From Hydrurus foetidus (Eukaryota): 54,111 nucleotides of DNA. The position numbers were made by a program, and so were the translations under genes. The notes under the pieces are model-generated. The model did no database searches. It was not told the origin of the DNA and saw only the letters and a list, made by a program, of their open reading frames with translations. The stretch spans positions 1 to 54,111 of the forward strand of contig UYFQ01000289.1 of assembly GCA_900617105.1 (NCBI GenBank), given 5' to 3'. Below, piece by piece: positions 1-54,111 of this stretch; position 1 is the stretch's first letter, and each line of letters opens with the position of its first letter.

Positions 1-3000
1 TCGCCACCATTCATGCTCAAGACTATTGTCATCGATCAAATGAATGATACTACACTGCTCTCAGTGTCTCAAGCGTGTGCAAAGGGATTTGTGGGCATCT
101 TCACCTCTAAGGACTGCAAGTTCTTCAATGCGATAGATGTCATCCCACACCTTCAGACAATTTCAAAGACAGCTCACCTAGTTATGAGTGGCAAGGTAGA
201 GGAAGGCCTCTACTTGCTGGACTCCAACTGAGTGCAACCGGCTCAACTCTTGGTCACGAGTGTAAAGGAGCTTTCGATTTATGACCACGTGCATCGCGTA
301 CTAGGACACCCTGGCGAAGAGGGTATGGCCTGGCACCGACAGCACACCATTGGAGCACACTACTCCAACTTGGATGCATCTACACCAAGACCAATATGCG
401 CAGCATGCGTACAGGGCACGATGCGACAGACCTCTACGGACCATCTTCGTATACACCGTTTGCCATCTCCTTGCTACGGCAGTCAATTCTCACTTGACGC
501 GTATACACATACACACCGGTCACAGGCCGGTTATAAGTACTGCGATATCATCACGGACTTATCTACAAGACGAAGTTATCCATGCTTCACGAAAGACCGG
601 GGAGCTGCAGAACTTGTCAAAAGCTTCTCCACCCTCTTCCAATCACATCCTGAGTGGAAGCCCTCGCTTCCAGGCGTAGACCGATTCATCAGAGCCGATG
701 CAGAGAAATCTTATCGGTCAGCTGAATTCCTTCAATGCCTTCACAACTTCGGATATCGACTTGAGCCAACACCACCTCGCGACAAACATGCAAATGGAAT
801 CGCAGAACGTGCAGTAGGCGTCTTATCGATGAAGTGCAACATCACCATGCAACCTTTAGGGATGTCAGTACCACAGAAGTTTTGGGATCTTGCCTTTGAG
901 TATACATGCATCACCCATGCATTCAATTACCATTCAGCAATCAAGACATCACCGTATCATCTCATCACTGGAAAGCATGTAATCCTCAAGAACCTCAAGG
1001 CCTTTTGGAGCTTATGTTGGGTTCACATCGCGCTTGAAGATAGGAAAGGAAAAATCGGTTTTCCTCGTGCATACAAAGCCAGATTCGTTGGTTACGATTT
1101 ATCGAGAACGCTCGAGCCTTGTTTTAAGGTCATCGAAATACTACCAACCGGAATCTTCGGCAAAATTAGGACAAGTAAGGACGTCATTTTCGACAAAGAC
1201 AATAATTATAATTACACGGACGAGTACCCATCCGATCTTGACTTTTCTAATTTACACCAGAATATCAATAACGATATCTCTGCAGTCCTACCAGCTAACA
1301 AGGTAGTTGAAAAAGATTCTGAACAACAACTAGCAACTCCAGCTATTCCAATACACCCTGTACCTGTAATACCTTGCACTATTCAGAATCGAACCCCTGA
1401 AAATCCTATTCCAGCGAAAATACATCCAAATGTGATTAACAATAACAAAATTGTTAATAAATCTGGATCGACTAATATCAAATCAACAAAACAGAATATA
1501 CCGTTTGATCCAACACCAATTAGAGATACAAATAACAAATCCGACATCGATGATAATGACATTGGTATTAATACACCGATTCAAAACATTGAAAATGACG
1601 ATGCTGTCTACTGGTACTCTACTCATGTTAGAAATCACGAACATTTTCTCTCATTGATTGAAGCAAGTCATCACGAAAAACTCTTCATCAATTTCGATCA
1701 ACTCAATGTGCCAAAATCATTCTGGAAAGCTATGGCTATACCTGAATGGAAAAACGCAATAGATACTGAATTAAAGAAATTCGAGAAGAACTCATGTTTA
1801 CATGTAGTACCATACATTGACCAACACCTGGTACCAATGATGTGGCTTTTTAGTATAAAAACCGACGGTACGAAAAAGGCCCGTTTAGTGGGACGGGGAG
1901 ATATGATGATACCACTCGTGGACTTCGACCCCGACGCCGTATACTGCGGAAATGTATCATCGTGTTCCATCAAGATGGCACTAAGCATTGCAGCAGCATA
2001 TGGACTAGTAATGAAAGGAGGTGACCTCATTGGTGCTTACCTCATTACAAGAGCAAATGTTAACTTCCCGGTGCACATAAAGACACCGCAGGGATACACT
2101 TGCCCACCCGGTTTCTGCTTTCAGGCTGTCGGCAATCTTTATGGATTCCCACCTGCAGGGCAAAACTTTTCCATAGAGTTCGATATTTGTATCTTCGAGT
2201 GTGGTTACAAGAACACACCCTGGGACCTCAAGTTCTTCTTTAAATGGACCACAGATGGTAGACCCATGCTTATCATCGCTCACAGTGATGACTTCAGATG
2301 GTTTGGTCCTTCGGACAAACTTGATGAATGGGATCTGATCATCGCCACCTTCAATGCACACAAGTATGAAGTCACTGATGCAACTGACAAGGAGTTCGTT
2401 GGTATTCGTATTCAGCGTGATGAAGATGGCACATATTATATGGATCAACATCGCATGATTGATTCAATAATAAAAGAGGCTAATATATCTGGTGCGAAGG
2501 ACATGCACTTACCATACCCGACTGGGGACCAAGAACCTGCATTGTCAAAACTAGACAACGCTTCTACCCCTGAGGAACGTATGCAGTGTATGAAATACCC
2601 GTACAGGAGGGTCGTGGGTCAACTAATGTACGGTATGGTACATACCATGGTCGGCATTCTGTATGCACTCAATGTACTATCCCGCTATGGTAACAACCCA
2701 GGTCCCAGACATATTAAATTCCTCAAACACTTACTGCAGTACTGCAAGTACGCACGAAGTGATCGACTAGTGTTCCATGGACACGATGGACCCAGAGACA
2801 TCGAGACTATGACAACGCTACTTCAACTCCGGTTTCAATGCGATGCAGATTTGGGTGGTAATCCCGACAATAGCCACTCCCAGACTGCATACCTTGGATA
2901 CCTCGGCCGTAACCTTATCTGCTGGTGTTCCACCGACCAAGGCAGCATATCAACATCAACGGCAGAGTCGGAAATCAAGGCTGTCAACCACACACTCAAA

Positions 3001-3306
3001 GCAGAGGTCATAGCCAACAGAGGCATCCTAAACATGATGGGATGGGTCCAAGGTCCAACCTCTATTGAAGAAGACAACCAAGCCTGTATATACCATTCTA
3101 AGGCAGCACACATGACACGCAACCTAAGGCACCTCGACCTCACCGAAAACTGGGTCAAAGAGAAGGTTGCTGATGGTACTTGCGTAGTTGTTAAAGTTAA
3201 ATCGTGCGATAATAATTCAGATATTGGTACAAAAAGAGTTTCTCTACCAATATTTAATAAACTTCTAAATCAAATTATAGATCAGTCTCAGAGACGAAAT
3301 CTTTAA
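1..3306 (+). CDS. pol: Copia Pol polyprotein (protease C-terminus, GAG-pre-integrase HHCC, integrase, RT, RNase H); one in-frame TGA at 229-231
   Basis: LLSVSQ..GLYLL; HRVLGH..CAAC; integrase D-D-E (SLDAY, RADAE, NGIAER); RT KARLVGRG, LYG, HSDD; RNase H CDADLG, STAESE, EEDNQA, NNSDIGTK. ORFs 13..231 and 232..3306 share a frame. Confidence 0.92.
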
Positions 3307-3438: not shown

Positions 3439-3506
3439 TGTCAGACCACTTGATTCTATCAAGATATGTCTGTAGTAATATAGTTGCAAATATAGTTTCA
3501 AATATA

Positions 3507-4015
3507 TACATGTACGTTATGCGACACGTACGTACGTAAGTACACATGCAGATATGATAACATGCACACGTACACACGTACTTACACATGTTAGTGCATA
3601 CTCATTTATGCATACGTACACACATGTACTTACACATGTACGTACATAGTCAATATGTACGTACGTACGTACGCATGCACGTAGCATAGCGTACACCTGT
3701 ATGGTCACGCACACACGTACATACGTACGTGCACATGTTAGTACAAATTATTATATGCATATGTACACACACGTACTTACACATGTATGTACACATATAA
3801 TACGTACGTATGTACGGCCGCCAATAGCGTAGTACATAGATGTATAGGCGTACATACGTAAGTACCACTGTACTTACGCATGTACGTTCTTATACATACA
3901 CATGCATACGTACTCCTATAATATCGCCATATAGCAGTTAGTACTCACGCATGTACGTTCGTATACATATACACGCATACGTACCCCTGTACTATCGCCA
4001 TGTATCAGTTAGTAC
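3507..4015. repeat. Low-complexity alternating purine-pyrimidine satellite (TACG/TACA/CATG units) ending in two ~71-bp tandem copies (3871-3941, 3942-4015)
   Basis: Directly visible repeats. Confidence 0.85.
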
Positions 4016-9576: not shown

Positions 9577-9785
9577 TGTAGTCCGGATAGGAAGTAGGTC
9601 GATGGAAGGAAGGTGTTAGTTAGTTACAAGGCTATGAGCTAGAAGCTAGGATAAACTTCCACGAGTAGGCTAGAGCTAGCTAGCAGCTGCGCTAGAGATG
9701 TATGTGTACAGTAGGCGGTAGGATCGGATGGATCGGGACAAGGTCCGGTACGGCCCGTAGGCCCGGTATAGCCGGTCCGACCACA
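9577..9785 (-). repeat. 3' LTR of G1 (209 bp)
   Basis: Direct repeat of 16134-16340 with 5 differences; preceded on minus strand by purine-rich GAAAAAAAGATAAGTGGGGGTGA. Confidence 0.97.
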
Positions 9786-15571: not shown

Positions 15572-16133
15572 GTCTAATCACTTATCGATGTAAATCTCAC
15601 TGAAAGTCAATGGAGATCGATAACCCCTGCTCAGAAAAATTTTTCAAGAGCTTCGCCTCGTTCACAAACGGGTACTGTAACGTCAGTAACAACGAATGAA
15701 GCAATTCTACCCAACTCTTGAACTGAAAAGTTCTATGGCGTGAAAGCCAAATTTAGAGTGGTAGAAAATCTGGGTGCCTGTTAAGGTCAAAGACGTTGCT
15801 CAACGTCGACAAAAAGAAGTCTATAGACTAATCTTATGTCTCTGGTGATGAATCTGTGATTCGATCGACCAGCGGAGCAAGTCTAAAATGACTTTTGGGA
15901 AGGATAAATCAACTTCGACCAAAATGTCAAGTTTGGAAGAGCCCAATGCACGGGGATTCCAAGAAAGCAGTTAATCTGACTTTCTCTAACTTAGACTAGG
16001 TCTTCTGAGCCAATGGCTGCAGAAGAAAACGGCTCGAAAGTCGTTGAGCAGACGCTCAGAAGTCTTATCTACAGGTTGGGACGAGTAGACGGAATGAGAG
16101 GTAGCAGAGAAAAGAGTGGACTAATAGCGCTAT

Positions 16134-16340
16134 TGTAGTCCGGATAGGAAGTAGGTCGATGGAAGGAAGGTGTTAGTTAGTTACAGGCTCTAAGCTAGAA
16201 GCTAGGATAACTTCTACGAGTAGGCTAGAGCTAGCTAGCAGCTGCGCTAGAGATGTATGTGTACAGTAGGCGGTAGGATCGGATGGATCGGGACAAGGTC
16301 CGGTACGGCCCGTAGGCCCGGTATAGCCGGTCCGACCACA
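16134..16340 (-). repeat. 5' LTR of G1 (207 bp)
   Basis: Direct repeat of 9577-9785, TG..CA ends. Confidence 0.97.
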
Positions 16341-39510: not shown

Positions 39511-41098
39511 CGCATAACATATGACCATTGCACACACAAAAATGCAATATCTGAAGTCAGCAATATCTTGTCCTGCCCTGTCCTGCACGACACAAAGTTT
39601 TAGTGTGGCATTCTATCAGGACGCGGACCTAATCTCCTTCATTTCCGCTCTCCTGGATGACGTGTAGTGTGTAGTGTATGGGCGCACATCGAGCTGGGAC
39701 TGTGCAACCACATTCCATCATGGTCCCTTGAGGGATGAGAGCCACTTCCGTGTAAGTAATTACCACTCATCACATTGGAGGGATACTCGACATTATGGGT
39801 TGTCCTGGATGGGCCTTACAGATTGGGAGGCTAAAAAAAATTTGCTGATGTACCGTACCAGACCTTTTTCAATTGCTGTGCTTTCTGAATATATGAGATG
39901 CGACATGAGTTATTCCTGCAAACCTGCTGCATTGACATTGGCAAAGTTGATGGAAACACACTGAATACTGTATTGCTTACAGATTACAATGTATCGTACC
40001 ATTTGACGGTCAATCAACCGATAGTGCATCCCCCTCCATCTGATATCAACTGCATGTTGCAGTGTGAGTTCGATTGCATCAAAGACGCCATCAGCGTGTG
40101 AATCCATTTCAATCAAGGACGTCCAGAATTTATTTCTCAGCGATGGTGCAGTCGATGACAGCAATTTGTTGGACACCACGCTATGGACACTGATCACAGA
40201 CACCATTGCTTTCCATGCCACGCAAGTAACATCGATCAGTGCGGTACATTATTCCCGGATTCAACATTATCCTGGCTGCAGTAAGAGAGACATTGCGGCC
40301 TGTCTAGACTTCAGACACCCCACACAATTAGACACCGGTTGATTTTACAGTTCTTTGGACTTATCTACCGAATTGAACAAATGCCAGTTAAACTGTTAGA
40401 AGTTCCCTCAGCAACGATGGAGTATCAAGTTGTAGTGTAGATATATCATATCATAATCGTACTGTCCAATCGCCCGCGCAAAAAAATACAGCGATTTCAG
40501 TAAAATACAGGAAAAGGTCAGCAAATCTGTATGCGTACTAATCCCTCCCCGCATCCATATGCGGTGTACACTAGTTCGCAATTGAAAACAGATGGATCCC
40601 AATCGAGAGAGAGAGTAGAATCCTGCCATTCTGCCTTTTTTTTATTTATAATACTACGGGCTGATGACGTCTAAACCGGCCAAGTAAATTCAGTCCCTCT
40701 GAACATATCTTCGACCCAGCGGTTTTTGACGTTCAATAGCTCAAAAAAACGGAAATAATATTCTGCGCTTACTGGCGTCGTTACATAAGGCTCAAAATTT
40801 GAAATTCAAAATTTTTACCCCAGAAACTGTTTGGAGGCAATTTAAGGATCGATATCTTGCTTGCAATTCGAATTTTGGACCTTATGTAACGACGCCACGC
40901 TGTAGGTATAATGAAAGCGATCATTTCGGTCTATTCACTTTCCATTGAATCGTTGCCAAAGATATGTCCTGTGGAGAGCAATTTTTCGAATTTTTCGTAC
41001 TCTGAATTTCCATATTGGTCAAAAATCGCGGAAAATATTTTTGAAACCGAAATCTGACTGTAAAAAAACCCGGATATGACGAAGGGTCGTGATTCGCG

Positions 41099-41526
41099 AT
41101 TCTCTTTCTCTACACGGTCTCAATCCTCTTGGTGGTAATGGCGTACGTACAGGTCGGAACGTATTCACTCCCGTCAGGTTTTTTCTCGATTTGTACATAC
41201 CGTACGTGCGCCATTTAAAATAATGTCCGTACTTACGTACGTGCTGCCTGGCATGCTCTCCGTAAGTACTTACGAACGTACTCAGATGCCTCGTCCGTAC
41301 ATCACTAAAGACGTCCGTGCACCCCTAGAAGCTGTCCGCGCAGGGTGGAACGTACGTAGTTACAGTTCAACATAGGACCATCTCGTTAATTAACTCTTAG
41401 TTACCCTAATTGGGGTGCACTCGTGTGCCCAGACGCCTCCTTCAAGACACAGACACCACCGGCTCGATCTTACTCAGCCAACCGGTGGGTCCGGATTCTT
41501 GTCAGGGTTAGCGATCACCTTCACCC
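41099..41526 (-). repeat. Repeat B2 of YR element
   Basis: Copy of 41997-42423; the only difference I found is the length of a T run. Confidence 0.95.
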
Positions 41527-41608: not shown

Positions 41609-41997
41609 AAAAACTGTTTAACTTGAAGATTCTGCGAAAGAAGCTGCTAAAACTGCGTAATATTCAATTTAAACCTACTATGCATGTGCACTGCAGTCTT
41701 GCAACCAGTGCTGCAAGAACTGAAAGATTTGCAAGAAATGAAGCATTGAAACGTGGACAAAACCGTATAGTGTTAGGTGTGTGTACACTGAAAACTGAAA
41801 ACGTGTTCTGTGTTGTATTCTACGTCTATTGCTGCGCTACACTTTGTCTTGTTACCGTTCTCCAAAAATTCCATAAGGAAGTCTAAGTCCAAGCAATTCG
41901 TACTTCGGACCTAAAGAGAACAACTTGCAACCGTTTTGAGCCGACTCCGATCCAGAGAACCCAATCCGCAAGTGCACAAGTTCCCGGCGTCATACAA
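41609..41997 (-). repeat. Repeat A2 of YR element
   Basis: Copy of 47671-48059 (offset 6062). Confidence 0.95.
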
Positions 41998-42423
41998 TTC
42001 TCTTTCTCTACACGGTCTCAATCCTCTTGGTGGTAATGGCGTACGTACAGGTCGGAACGTATTCACTCCCGTCAGGTTTTTCTCGATTTGTACATACCGT
42101 ACGTGCGCCATTTAAAATAATGTCCGTACTTACGTACGTGCTGCCTGGCATGCTCTCCGTAAGTACTTACGAACGTACTCAGATGCCTCGTCCGTACATC
42201 ACTAAAGACGTCCGTGCACCCCTAGAAGCTGTCCGCGCAGGGTGGAACGTACGTAGTTACAGTTCAACATAGGACCATCTCGTTAATTAACTCTTAGTTA
42301 CCCTAATTGGGGTGCACTCGTGTGCCCAGACGCCTCCTTCAAGACACAGACACCACCGGCTCGATCTTACTCAGCCAACCGGTGGGTCCGGATTCTTGTC
42401 AGGGTTAGCGATCACCTTCACCC
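41997..42423 (-). repeat. Repeat B1 of YR element
   Basis: Copy of 41099-41526; overlaps last codons of YR. Confidence 0.95.
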
Positions 42424-47670: not shown

Positions 47671-48059
47671 AAAAACTGTTTAACTTGAAGATTCTGCGAA
47701 AGAAGCTGCTAAAACTGCGTAATATTCAATTTAAACCTACTATGCATGTGCACTGCAGTCTTGCAACCAGTGCTGCAAGAACTGAAAGATTTGCAAGAAA
47801 TGAAGCATTGAAACGTGGACAAAACCGTATAGTGTTAGGTGTGTGTACACTGAAAACTGAAAACGTGTTCTGTGTTGTATTCTACGTCTATTGCTGCGCT
47901 ACACTTTGTCTTGTTACCGTTCTCCAAAAATTCCATAAGGAAGTCTAAGTCCAAGCAATTCGTACTTCGGACCTAAAGAGAACAACTTGCAACCGTTTTG
48001 AGCCGACTCCGATCCAGAGAACCCAATCCGCAAGTGCACAAGTTCCCGGCGTCATACAA
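47671..48059 (-). repeat. Repeat A1 of YR element
   Basis: Copy of 41609-41997. Confidence 0.95.
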
Positions 48060-48210: not shown

Positions 48211-48493
48211 TAGAGCTTGTGGCCGGTCACCCAGGCCGGCCGGCCTGGCCGACCGGTCATCTTTTTGATGACCGGCCAATCTGCACCTACCATATTAGGG
48301 GTAAATTTACCGAATTATAGGGTGACTTTCCAGAATTTTAGGGGTAGCTCACAAAATTTTCGTACTTTTGGGGGGTTATTTCACGGTTTTGGGTATTTGA
48401 CTCCCTTACACGGTTTAAATCATTGGCCAGCCGGCCAACCGGCCGATGGCAGAAATTTTAGGCCGGCCAGGCCGACGCCTGATTTGGTCGTCG
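48211..48493. mobile_element. Probable left part of a small DNA transposon (hAT-like TAG start, GGCCGG subterminal repeats) interrupted by G2
   Basis: TAGAGCTTGTGGCCGG start and many GGCC/CCGG motifs in both orientations; second TIR not in window. Confidence 0.35.
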
Positions 48494-48755
48494 TGTAGCC
48501 TTATTGCATTCCTAAGGGGATACAATGTGTCTAGGTTAACTAGGTACAATAGGTATACTACGCCCAGATTCCACTTTTAGGTCTTAGTTCTATGTATGAT
48601 GTGAGTGCACTAGCGTACACATCACTTGTATATATTCAACTGTAAGATATTAACATAAGTCTTCTCTACCGACTTCCGCTTCCTCTTGCTCCACCGCTTG
48701 CCCACCGTACCAGCCACCAACAGCTCCGACGTCCTAGGCCCCACCGTCGACCACA
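48494..48755 (+). repeat. 5' LTR of G2 (262 bp)
   Basis: TGTAGCC...CGACCACA; 5' part repeated at 53956-54111; 3' end inferred from the terminal inverted motif and analogy with G1. Confidence 0.9.
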
Positions 48756-48848
48756 ATATCGATATTTGGTCTCCTACCAAAGTTTTTTCTTGAGAATTTT
48801 CTTCTCAAACTTATTTTATTCGTCTTCATTCTCCGACATCCGACATAT

Positions 48849-50343
48849 TATGGCGCTCCGACGTCAGGGAAACAAGACCACCTCCATCAACACTTTGCGA
48901 CGACAACAGCAGCCACCTCGAGCTGTTGCCGTCGCGTTCCGACAACGCTACGACGAGCATCATAATCGTGGGGGAGATATTTTCGAGTCTCCTGGGCCAC
49001 CTGCGGCTCAGGACCCCGCCGGCGACCTGTCTGCACCGATTCCTCAGCGGAATTCGGAGCCTGCGGTCATGTCTGCCATTGATGTCCCTGTCATTTCTGC
49101 GTTGAATGCTTTATCATTGCAACCAGCTTCGGCTGAGACACCAGCTTCGGCTGAGATACCAGCTTCGGCTGAGATACCAGATTCGTCTGCGACACCAGCC
49201 TCGGCTGAGATTCCACGTTCGATGGCACCACCTCAGCACTATGTGCAGACGGGTGAGAGAGCTCCTAAGTTGAGCGCCATGCCCTCTCGACAGGAAGTCT
49301 TACGAGTTACGGAGGTTCTACTTTCAAATGGAACTCCGTTTCGACCAATTGATGTCGTTCATGCTTCAAACCATCAATCGTTCACAACGCTTCTCAAGCG
49401 TAAATTCGCGACGAATCCAACTCGTCGTGATGCGTGTAACGGTTGGAAGCATTGGACGAATCAAATGTTTTGTAGAGAATTAAATATCACAATTCCTACA
49501 TCAGCTGTCAATCGTACTGACAAGCTGAGTTTCATTGAAACAGTTTCTCAGGTCCCACTTCAATTCGACCTGAAGAACAAATCAGTTGAAGATAAGACAG
49601 ATCAACTTTTAGCTGATATTGTTGATGCCTTCCCTGATGTGACACCTGCTCTCCAACTTCAGGCAACAAAAATTCTCATTGAGAAGTTGCCAGTCGAACC
49701 TGTCAATTGGAGAGCAGTGTTACAACGTTGTCTTGACGACACTACGCCTAGACTCATCACGATCGAAGATTTTCGATTCGTATGGCTGGCGCAGTTAGCA
49801 AAACTTCGTGAATCAATTGATGCTTTGCGTTTCATTGATGTCACACCTTTGTATGGCAGTAACTCTCGCCAGATCAAAGCCCAACCTCGTTCTTCACTTG
49901 ATTCGCAAATCAAAAAGCGTCAACGTGAAGACGAGCAATCTGTGCAGGCTGAAAAGTCTGATAGGCCTCCACGACCTATGTGCACAGGTTGTGGGAGACT
50001 CGGCCATGTAGTCGCCACGTGTTTCTACACTTCGTCTCCGTACTATAACAGTACAGACGCTCCCTATCTCAACTCTGAGGGTCATAAGCAGTTGTTGAAA
50101 GTTGATCCGAAGGCTCAGTTCATTCCGACTTTGCCTAAGACAACCTCTCTTCTTCGTCTTCTTCCTCCTCCTCTTCTTCGTCAAGGTCTGCTACTTCAAC
50201 AGCAGATTCGACACATCCTTCGAAGAAACACAAAGGTGAGCAACTATGCAATCTCAACTCATCATCTACTCTCTCCGATGATCCAGAGCTGATCCCTTTC
50301 TACATCTCTCCTCTTTCACAGGAGCCGTTGTTGGGAAAAGTGA
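48849..50343 (+). CDS. gag: G2 Gag with CCHC zinc knuckle
   Basis: ORF from ATG 48849; CTGCGRLGHVVATC; 3' end depends on a frameshift near 50147 and predicted intron 50236-50321. Confidence 0.85.
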
Positions 50344-53300
50344 TAGAGTATTTACTCTTCTGGACACCGGCTCTTTTGCTGGCAATTTTGTCAATCGCCG
50401 CATTATAATTTCTCATAAACTAACACAATTTATAACTAAAACTAATAATAAATTGTGTAGAGTTTGTAGTGGATTAGATAATCATTGTTATGATATCTCT
50501 GATACTATAGACTTAACTTTATCTTCTTTTTGCCATGATTTAAATAATTACTATACTTTTCCAATCACGGCTTATATTTTAGAAGATTCTAAATTTGATC
50601 TAGTAGTGGGACGTAAAACAATTCGTCAATTGAATTTGTTTTCACGATTCCCGGATCAAATATCCGCCAATGCTTCATCAGGCACTGTTCCGTTGGAAGA
50701 AGTTTTAACTTCTGAAGATGTGGACGTAACGTGTGGCTGCTTGCCTAAGGAGAATTTGCAACCCTCCGAAGGCTCCCCAAAAGTGGATCCTTTAACCCAA
50801 AAGGTGAAACCGGCAGTCACCCAAACACACGTTATTCTAGCCTCGCTGATTCAAGAGTCAGAAAGACTCTTTGGAGCAGTACCACCTGATGAAGACGAAA
50901 TCGACGACTCGATCAAGGACTCGTTTTCACCTTGGATGGATGAATTTCCTGCTTCAGATCCACTCTCGCTAATACACATAGCAGGTGATGAAGAGCAGAA
51001 AAACAAATTACGTATACTAGTACACGAATTTGAGGATATATTTAGCAGTGAACTATCACAAACTCCTGCTGATATTCCACCTTTTGACTTTAATGTCAAT
51101 GATACTAAATGGAAAGTACCTAAGAATAGGCAACCTCCATGGACAAAATCAAATGTTGATCAAGCTGACATCTTAAGTCAAATAACAAAGCTTGAAAAAC
51201 ATAAAATTGTCGAAAAATCAAACGCGGCATATTATAGCCAAGTTTTGTTAGTTCCTAAATCAGATGGAACTAAGCGTATGTGTATAGATTTTCGGAACTT
51301 AAATAACTGTACCGAAGATACATCACATCCTATTCCACACATCGGTGAGATGTTGCGTCGAATAGGTGCACATGGAGCAAAAGTATTTGCTGTACTTGAC
51401 CTTACTCAAGGATATCATCAAGCACCACTTACGCTCGCTGCACGCGCTTATACTGCATTCATACTATTCTGCGGTGTATATCAATTTACTCGTTTACCTT
51501 TTGGGCCTAAACAAGCTCCCTCCTACTTCCAACAGATCATGACGACTGTTGTGTTAGCAGGGTTGATATACTCTATATGCGAAATGTATATTGATGATTG
51601 CAATGTATTCGGTAAAGACATTGATGAACTCATTTCGAGACTTCGTCTTGTTTTTGAACGCTTTAGAAAACACAAAATATTCCTTAAACCGAATAAGTGT
51701 TATCTTGGCTACGCCGAAATAGACTATGTTGGCAAAGTTCTTTCTGCTGAAGGACTAAGAATGTCACAAGAAAAATACGGAATGTCTTAGATTTTCCTAA
51801 ACCAGTACTATCTAAACAACTTAAAAGTTTTTAGGATTGGTTAATTATTTTCACGATTTTGTTAGAAACGCTTCAACTGTTGTATATCCAATGAACCAGT
51901 TGTTGCTTAACTACAATAAATATAAGAAAATAACATGGACAATAGAAGCTCTTCGAGCATTCAATTTGATCAAATCTGAGATTTCTAAATGCACGACTAT
52001 GCACTTTCTAAGTGACACCGATCCGATTTACTTGCACACTGATGCATCGGACTATGGTGTAGGTGCCTATCTTTTCCAGTTAGTTGACGGAAAGGAGACG
52101 CCCATAGCATTTGTTAGTAAGTCACTCAACAAAGCTCAGCTTCGTTGGGCTGTCATACAGAAAGAAGCATATGCTATCTTTTATGCGTGCACGTATTTAA
52201 AATCGCTATTACGTGATCGTACGTTTACATTACGTACAGACCATCGTAACTTGTTATACATAAAGGAAAATTCAAATCCAATGATAGTCAGATGGTTTAT
52301 GGCCTTATCTGAATATTCATTTAACATTGAATATATTCCTGGACCTAACAATAACATAGCTGATTCGATGTCTCGACTCTGTCGCAATAACATGGTTGAT
52401 TTTCCTCAGGAATATACTCCTGATGCAATCATGTCTGCTAATACTATTGAAAAATTTAAACTAACACGTGAGCAGTATGACAAAATCAGTGAACTGCATA
52501 ATTCACAAGTTGGTCATTTCGGCCTCGAGCGTACTATAAAACGTCTCAGAGATAGAAATGAAAATTGGCAATATATGCGACAGCATGTCAGGTACTTCAT
52601 AGATCACTGTTCGTGTTGTCAGAAGATGAGTATGTTAAAGATACCAATACATGCTCATGGCTTCTCGACTTCTACTTACACACCTATGGAATGCCTAAAC
52701 ATAGACTTCATAGGACCGTTTCCAGACGGCGGGTACGTACTCGTAATTATCGATACGTTCACAAGATGGGTTGAACTGTTTCATACAGAAGATGCTACTG
52801 CACTTTCAACAGCTAAATGCCTCTTGCAACATTTCGGTCGTTTCGGCGCACCTCTTCAACTCCGTTCTGATAATGGGCCACACTTCATTTCCGAAGTAAT
52901 CAAAGAGTTTCTAACTCTGATTGGCACTCAACATTGTCTTACTTTAGCATACTCTAAAGAAGAAAATGCTATTGTTGAGCGCATGAATAAAGAAGTTAAT
53001 AGACATCTTCGTGCATTAACTTATGATAATGTCACATTAGAAGACTATAAAACATCACTTCCATTTGTGCAAAGAATTATAAATTCTAATCACAGTGATC
53101 GTTTGAAGATATCAGCTTCACAACTTCTTTTCGGAAATGTACTTAAACTCGACAGAGGTATCTTTTACCTCCTGCTGAGCGAAACGTTACTGATGACAAA
53201 CCTTTGTCAAAACGATTAAGCAATCTAATCAAAACACAAGATAGTCTTCTGAAAGCTTCTGCTAAAGAACTTCTTCGTACAGATTTGCTGCATCAAAGTC

Positions 53301-53755
53301 AGTCTCAAGTTTCTCAACATGTAGAGTATCCGAAGGACTCATATGTTCTTGTGCACTATCGCGATGGCTCTCCTCCTTCACGCCTTCATACGCATTGGAG
53401 AGGTCCATTAAAAGTCGTTAGTGGCGAAAATTCGCGTTACACACTATATGATTTAGTCACTCAGAAAACTTCAGAGTTTCATGTATCTGCAATGAAACCG
53501 TTTCTATTTGACCCTTCAATCACAAATCCGTTGGATGTTGCACGACGTGATCACATGGAATACTTTGTTGAAGACATTCTTGATCATCGTGGCAAACACC
53601 AACGTACCCACATAGAGTTTTTAGTCAAATGGTTGAACTACCCTTCTGACAAAAACACTTGGGAACCTTACTCAAGTCTTCGTGATGTTGATAAACTTCA
53701 TGATTATTTACGTCATAATAACATGACTAAATTAATCAATAAACAACATCGATGA
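50322..53755 (+). CDS. pol: G2 Pol: protease, RT, RNase H, integrase, chromodomain (several 1-nt frameshifts)
   Basis: LLDTGS at 50357-50374; RLPFG..YIDD; LHTDASDYGVG; HHCC; NIDFIGP, RSDNG, AIVER; FLVKWLNYPSDKNTWEP. Confidence 0.95.
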
Positions 53756-53955
53756 CTTAATATATTTGAAACTTTATCCATGAGGATTCTCTCCTATTTT
53801 TTTTTACCTATGGGTCTTTTTTTGGAGAGTTTAGTCAGTAAAAGTCTGACATAATCGTTTCACTTATATCTCATTTATATATATGTTTTACATATCTTCT
53901 TTTTTTCTTTTTTTTATATATCATCAAAGATCTTCAAAAAAGGAAGAAGGGGTAG

Positions 53956-54111
53956 TGTAGCCTTATTGCATTCCTAAGGGGATACAATGTGTCTAGGTTA
54001 ACTAGGTACAATAGGTATACTACGCCCAGATTCCACTTTTAGGTCTTAGTTCTATGTATGATGTGAGTGCACTAGCGTACACATCACTTGTATATATTCA
54101 ACTGTAAGATA
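53956..54111 (+). repeat. 3' LTR of G2 (partial)
   Basis: Identical to 48494-48649; preceded by AAAAAAGGAAGAAGGGGTAG. Confidence 0.97.

Follow-up and report, generated by a model that had tools for sequence, protein, structure and literature searches.

A strictly covarying palindrome at the primer-binding position of chromodomain Ty3/Gypsy elements, and its possible role in tRNA-independent priming

Organization of the locus

The window analysed here is the whole 54,111-nucleotide contig UYFQ01000289.1 of Hydrurus foetidus, which carries the LTR retrotransposons G1 on the minus strand and G2 on the plus strand. G2 is a chromodomain Ty3/Gypsy element with protease, reverse transcriptase (RT), RNase H and integrase in this order between its LTRs, and with a polypurine tract (PPT). 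The features are as follows.

48494..48755, plus strand: G2 5' LTR, 262 bp, TG...CA (repeat with 53956-54111; contig loose ends, branch and flanks)
48749..48753, plus strand: G2 U5 arm GACCA, optionally extending the duplex (arm comparison, folding)
48755..48766, plus strand: perfect 12-nt palindrome AATATCGATATT at the primer-binding position (sequence; compensatory changes in 35 families)
48767..48771, plus strand: G2 leader arm TGGTC, able to pair with the U5 arm and no PBS for a tRNA
48850..50292, plus strand: G2 gag-like ORF (52% identity to the P0001 N-terminus)
49981-50022, plus strand: G2 gag zinc knuckle CX2CX4HX4C
50282..51790, plus strand: G2 protease (LDTG) and reverse transcriptase (YIDD) frame (Pfam RVT_1; best PDB matches Ty3 RT)
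51825..53219, plus strand: G2 RNase H and integrase frame (Pfam RT_RNaseH, Integrase_H2C2 and rve)
53147..53755, plus strand: G2 integrase C-terminus with chromodomain (about 53567-53710; Pfam Chromo, E 8.7e-13)
53936..53955, plus strand: G2 PPT (sequence)
53956..54111, plus strand: G2 3' LTR, cut by the window end (156/156 identical to the 5' LTR)
16134..16340, minus strand: G1 5' LTR, 207 bp
16123..16134, minus strand: G1 palindrome AATAGCGCTATT at the primer-binding position
9577..9785, minus strand: G1 complete 3' LTR, then the CCAT target duplication, no palindrome

G1 has the same domains as G2, with 50% identity across RNase H-integrase and a chromodomain (PF00385) at the integrase C-terminus in both elements; among solved structures, the closest to the RT of G2 is that of Ty3. 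The G2 polyprotein is broken into four frames (48850-53755), though the two LTRs match at all 156 bp available and close relatives have a single ORF; the split reflects either recent damage or sequencing indels. G2 directly follows a block of GGCCGGCC-rich inverted repeats (48218-48493), which may mark the end of a non-coding DNA element that served as insertion target for G2. Public sequencing runs with G2 are mostly freshwater or sediment metagenomes, and no RNA dataset is among the runs listed.

Elsewhere in the window, a 428-bp direct repeat (41099-41526 and 41997-42423; 99.8% identical) flanks a 389-bp stretch (41609-41997) that recurs identically 6 kb downstream (47671-48059). The ends are not TG..CA, and a local duplication, a small element or an assembly artefact may account for this arrangement. 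Behind a Copia-type RT fragment (232-3306) come a PPT-like stretch, TG and a repeated region rich in ACGT (3500-4010) that is probably the 3' LTR of a Copia-type element, and an inverted repeat at 40773-40897 has 37-nt arms with 86% complementarity. An SMC3-like gene has its best named matches in ochrophytes (Chrysoparadoxa, Triparma and diatoms), which, with the habitats of the runs, suggests that the host is a freshwater stramenopile. Rfam gives nothing at gathering thresholds, and the ESM Atlas gives only generic RT/integrase and SMC clusters.

Position of the palindrome relative to the LTR end

The original prediction had the G2 LTR ending in GACCACA, which is read at 48749-48755, and a perfect palindrome at 48755-48766, in agreement with AATATCGATATT. 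This 12-mer is made up of the A that closes the LTR, 10 internal nucleotides and a T; no other base of it lies within the LTR. Several lines of evidence fix this boundary. In public runs, a contig ends precisely at 48755 (X3 record 20; X1 record 1), and in X3 the next contig starts at 48726; in two X2 contigs, unrelated flanks stand behind 48755. Contig loose ends bearing the PPT before 48493 mark the LTR start. The complete 3' LTR of G1 stops at the matching CA, without a palindrome and bounded by the 4-bp CCAT duplication, and the two LTR copies of a relative (L062) diverge one base past the corresponding point. Had the 3' LTR extended beyond 48755 to include the palindrome, with a TGG primer-binding site (PBS) further downstream, the prediction would have fallen; instead, the contigs branch at 48755. 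The contig branch and the stop of the G1 3' LTR at the same CA thus place the palindrome outside the LTR, at the primer-binding position.

The presence of a palindrome is not notable in itself, because the window holds 29 perfect palindromic 12-mers, four per strand after a C. At a single specified position, however, a 10-nt palindrome followed by T has a chance of about 3e-4.

On the minus strand, the G1 junction reads GGACTACA, ATAGCGCTAT and TAGTCC in succession. As predicted, the G1 and G2 12-mers co-vary at positions 5 and 8, which are the sole differences between them, and the LTRs are otherwise unalike, with no common match longer than 8 nt. Eight nucleotides of the G1 LTR start (16340-16333) are the exact reverse complement of the G2 LTR end (48748-48755), so integrase end sequences are common to both elements. 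The pairing of TGGTC (48767-48771) with GACCA (48749-48753), with C48754 bulged, is likewise confirmed; the bulge in this outer arm is one base in G2 and two bases (CA) in G1.

Junctions of related elements

From 809 matches, 48 long relatives were aligned; the fetched loci numbered 9, 37 and 68, and 8 further regions came from 15 genomes searched, giving 122 loci in total. Junctions were read from loci with upstream DNA or a head-to-tail assembly, most of the 122 being without a 5' junction. This yields 35 families including G1 and G2, with L047/L049, L054/L057 and L015/L118 counted once each.

All 35 readable families have a perfect internal palindrome at the LTR-leader junction, and in every one it adjoins the LTR end with single-nucleotide precision. 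The internal palindrome is 10 nt long in 27 families, 8 nt in three, 12 nt in two, 14 nt in two and 16 nt in one (10-18 nt with the flanking A/T pair), and occurs as 22 distinct sequences with 11 different self-complementary centres. LTRs end in CA in 33 families and in TA in two (L016:374, L047:159 and L049:3956 are the LTRs seemingly ending in TA). The base after the palindrome is T, pairing with the last A of the LTR, in 34 of the 35; the sole mismatch at this outermost pair is A/A in L047/L049. Behind the junction, a gag match is present for 18 of the 36 loci tested, and all except two short contig ends have a frame that opens with ATG.

In most relatives the LTR end was assigned by visual inspection to the CA that precedes the palindrome, with independent support in G1, G2 and L062; terminal inverted repeats put that CA first in 17 of 30 loci, and alone in 9. 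When LTR-plus-100-nt regions of 30 loci are shuffled, a CA-anchored palindrome of at least 10 nt appears in 4% on average. Five in-clade loci (L052, L055, L066, L068 and L104) were excluded from the 35: in these, an LTR start follows integrase, the likely LTR end carries no palindrome and no gag lies behind it, and, their 5' ends being missing, they are tentatively read as 3' LTRs with host flank.

In outgroup Gypsy loci, TGG is found within 2 nt of the LTR-like end in four of six inspected. In one outgroup locus (L003), a CA is followed by ATATCGATAT, but this lies 50 nt into the leader, behind a normal TGG site, and was rejected as chance. In two loci the LTR-palindrome-leader junction occurs twice per contig (L056 at 360 and 6679; L079 at 131 and 6372), which represents tandem copies or collapsed assemblies. 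Thirty-seven loci of this eukaryotic retrotransposon lineage (L010-L046) come from bacterial genome bins, with up to 50 matches per bin, likely as a result of bin contamination.

Covariation of the core palindrome

For covariation, the 27 junctions with a 10-nt internal palindrome were used (23 of them distinct), and the eight with other lengths were excluded. Of 138 cells, 137 are paired (99.3%), 34 of them via changes on both sides and none via a one-sided change; slid-register controls are 38-54% paired, and none of 500 shuffles reaches the observed covariation. The covariation that the original prediction called for across related Gypsy families is thus present in the core palindrome. No G-U pair occurs in the 138 cells.

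By parsimony on the RT tree (25 loci), at least 28 pair changes are required, with equal counts on both sides; this count is approximate, as the tree, built from the fetched loci and pruned to 25, has poorly supported deep branches. From the outside to the centre, the changes number 2, 1, 4, 10 and 11, so that 21 fall in the two central pairs. Close pairs of loci illustrate single steps: the palindromes of L048 and L050 (84% RT identity) differ only at positions 4 and 7, and those of L074 and L079 (75% RT identity) only at positions 5 and 6. The central bases, which are unpairable in a hairpin, therefore remain complementary and covary most. Pairing rather than sequence had been proposed as the target of selection; this describes the strictly covarying core, but the outer letters are also conserved in sequence (ATA in 25 of the 35 families).

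Host contigs show no listed substitution in 48755-48766 and no one-sided or flipped intermediates; a single base, at 48757, is missing from one contig. Overall, the core palindrome, and not the flanking arm, is the conserved and strongly covarying unit throughout the lineage.

Search for a conventional primer site

No TGG stands right after the LTR in the 35 junctions, which start with ATA, ATT, AAA, GTA, TAT, ATG, GTC or GTT, and ARAGORN finds no tRNA in the window. The TGG at 48767 was considered as a displaced PBS and rejected: 11 nt separate it from the fixed LTR end, and neither G1 nor most relatives have it. Sister subfamilies of G2 diverge five bases into this stretch. As the 22 different palindrome sequences cannot match one cellular RNA, half-tRNA priming is also argued against.

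A Tf1-type complement (at least 9 nt of the site inside the LTR) is found in one of 30 LTRs, as an AT-rich repeat in L060, and was rejected as the primer source because it is missing from the other 29. The longest complementary run between LTR and site averages 5.5 nt for own pairs and 5.3 nt for swapped pairs in these 30 LTRs.

A candidate priming mechanism and its alternatives

We give about even chances to the reading that, in G2 and its relatives, the palindrome directly after the 5' LTR would serve as both primer and PBS, replacing tRNA. If primer and binding site are one sequence, one expects a site that keeps to the PBS position and is always symmetric but can vary in its centre and length. 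Inside the particle, the palindrome would join the two genomic RNAs in a 10-12-bp duplex, which in some families would be lengthened by the U5 arm. A cut in one strand would follow at the palindrome's 3' edge, probably made by the RNase H of the element in a Tf1-like manner, and the new 3' end, lying at the U5 border of the partner RNA, would prime minus-strand strong-stop DNA. Plus-strand synthesis would copy the primer as the reverse complement of the site sequence, S, and this copy would have to pair with the template site as copied into the minus strand. Plus-strand transfer is clean only if S and its reverse complement are identical along the full length, which would explain why Watson-Crick symmetry is strict even at the centre. 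Each new DNA copy would bring together a one-sided mutant and its mirror image, providing a fast route to double changes. Pairing in trans, RNase H cleavage and flipping of the site are steps that we infer; fold-back priming in cis could take their place and would make the same demand on the sequence.

No cleavage signal was found, the base after the palindrome being T in nearly all families and the next base free. Many cores consist of A and U only, and about half are predicted at -4 to -7 kcal/mol as RNA duplexes; this weakness speaks against unaided pairing, and nucleocapsid or arm support would be needed.

The palindrome might instead be a dimerization or packaging signal only, like the retroviral DIS, with priming by something else. 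This is rather unlikely. In its favour, for the G2 junction folding predicts a homodimer gain of 16 kcal/mol, Gag carries a zinc knuckle, and symmetric centres are expected under intermolecular pairing. A DIS, however, sits in a loop and is additional to the PBS in the account given in PMC5445492, whereas the palindrome here occupies the PBS position to the nucleotide and the TGG and Tf1-type searches found no other primer site. In addition, a duplex formed by RNA only should tolerate the G-U pairs that are wholly missing from the core.

The original prediction implied a hairpin between U5 and leader within one RNA, like the avian U5-IR stem, which would be selected as such and position priming in cis. 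G1 and G2 do fold this way, but the stem is weak (-6.3 kcal/mol, z -1.5) and the two energies lie within the range of shuffles (z -1.5 and -1.9). The core as a monomer is predicted at 0.0 kcal/mol in 25 of 25. The claim that the flanking arm changes in step with U5 stands in part. With 10-nt arms, the permutation p is 0.003 for all families, 0.024 without G1 and G2, and 0.10 when four G2-like junctions are also left out; sister subfamilies of G2 continue with GATACC, by which the arm is lengthened to 7 bp. The arms of G1 and G2 are nevertheless among the three strongest of 35, those of most relatives are weak or absent, and in only 7 of 35 families is the arm in the top tenth of its own swap controls. 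Moreover, a hairpin would not require its loop bases to be complementary, yet these unpaired central bases covary most. The U5 arm is thus an optional extension of the palindrome duplex, and selection of the hairpin itself is improbable.

Alternatively, the symmetry could matter at the DNA level only, as a dyad for integrase or a host protein or as homology for plus-strand transfer, the primer coming from elsewhere. Strict Watson-Crick pairing without G-U and the conserved outer letters would fit. A protein site, however, would keep its letters and length, in contrast to the 11 forms of the centre and the internal lengths of 8-16 nt, and the primer would be left unexplained, making this reading distinctly improbable.

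Ordinary priming by a whole or half tRNA or by Tf1-type pairing with the 5' end, with the palindrome incidental, is very improbable in spite of the TGG at 48767 and of the self-priming from the 5' end described for the Tf1/Sushi/Tcn1 group of chromoviruses in passages of PMC6317226, since that TGG is remote from the LTR end, diverges after five bases in the sisters and is lacking in G1 and most relatives, the palindromes are too diverse to fit one cellular RNA, and nearly all LTRs lack the complement.

If the palindrome is primer and PBS at once, mirror-image mutants should complement each other.

Comparison with known systems

LTR elements have two established ways of priming: by a host tRNA or, as in Tf1, by pairing with the 5' end of their own RNA. 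The palindrome described here, present throughout the lineage and strictly covarying where the primer would bind, suggests a further one. On the sequence evidence, the G2 lineage likely employs a variant of known tRNA-independent priming mechanisms. More tentatively, and with somewhat under even odds in our estimate, this could be a third LTR priming route, in which the PBS is its own primer: one RNA of the dimer, cut after the palindrome, would prime on the other, coupling dimerization to initiation, freeing the element from tRNA and flipping the site in each cycle, so that it drifts by paired changes. Such a route would extend across a whole protist chromovirus lineage and may have re-arisen in Copia elements.

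Like Tf1/Tf2, Sushi and Tcn1, the G2 lineage consists of chromodomain Gypsy elements, apparently without a tRNA primer, as these are described in passages of PMC7175516 and PMC6317226. The Tf1 primer is made by RNase H cleavage of the element's own paired RNA (passages of PMC7175516), but it is the first 11 nt of the transcript and is complementary to a non-palindromic PBS (PMC7175516, PMC6317226, in part), a complement that is missing from 29 of 30 LTRs here. Hairpin priming is reported for some chromoviruses in part of PMC3601003. For the Skipper chromoviruses of dictyostelids, passages of PMC5006619 report neither TGG nor an LTR complement and suggest a novel form of self-priming; Skipper has a polypyrimidine stretch where the G2 lineage has a palindrome. 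The retroviral DIS (passages of PMC5445492) and the Ty1 PAL motifs resemble the G2 palindrome in being self-complementary, near the 5' end and able to pair genomic RNAs. Unlike it, they coexist with a tRNA PBS and are located in loops away from the LTR end.

The closest parallel is provided by the fungal GalEa elements, which are Copia elements with a palindrome that includes the last A of the LTR and with no tRNA PBS, according to passages of PMC5445492; the same inclusion of the last A is seen in 34 of 35 families here. The GalEa palindrome shows paired substitutions (CTGATCAGT / CTAATTAGT) and was proposed as the PBS, and a second inverse-complementary motif with a fixed mismatch lies 12-41 nt downstream; a hairpin is favoured by the authors (PMC5445492, in part). 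GalEa belongs to Ty1/copia, whereas the G2 lineage is Gypsy by domain order and Ty3-like RT, and GalEa has 10 nt in two dominant variants, as against 10-18 nt in 22 variants. A model in which primer equals PBS is not proposed in those passages of PMC5445492. Such a model, if true, would explain the GalEa site and also why PBS-based annotation misses such elements.

Term searches of PMC6934838, PMC2806351 and PMC10886601 give no palindromic Gypsy PBS; in the diatom paper PMC2806351, neither palindromes nor priming are mentioned under the terms searched. PBS or structural features are also listed in the supplements of PMC6317226, PMC5445492 and PMC2806351, which may be relevant to novelty. Within the literature covered, which is one of main texts and leaves Repbase Reports and most subscription journals outside its scope, there is no description of a palindromic PBS in Gypsy elements.

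Repbase Reports of about 2003 are said to include 'self-primed' Gypsy and Copia families of Thalassiosira pseudonana, with a palindrome of ~12 bp at the internal 5' end. These families reportedly have no tRNA-like PBS, and self-priming was reportedly suggested for them in database notes without covariation analysis or experiment. This host is a stramenopile too. The sequence feature itself thus has precedent; the advance here is the covariation evidence together with a testable mechanism, and not a first sighting.
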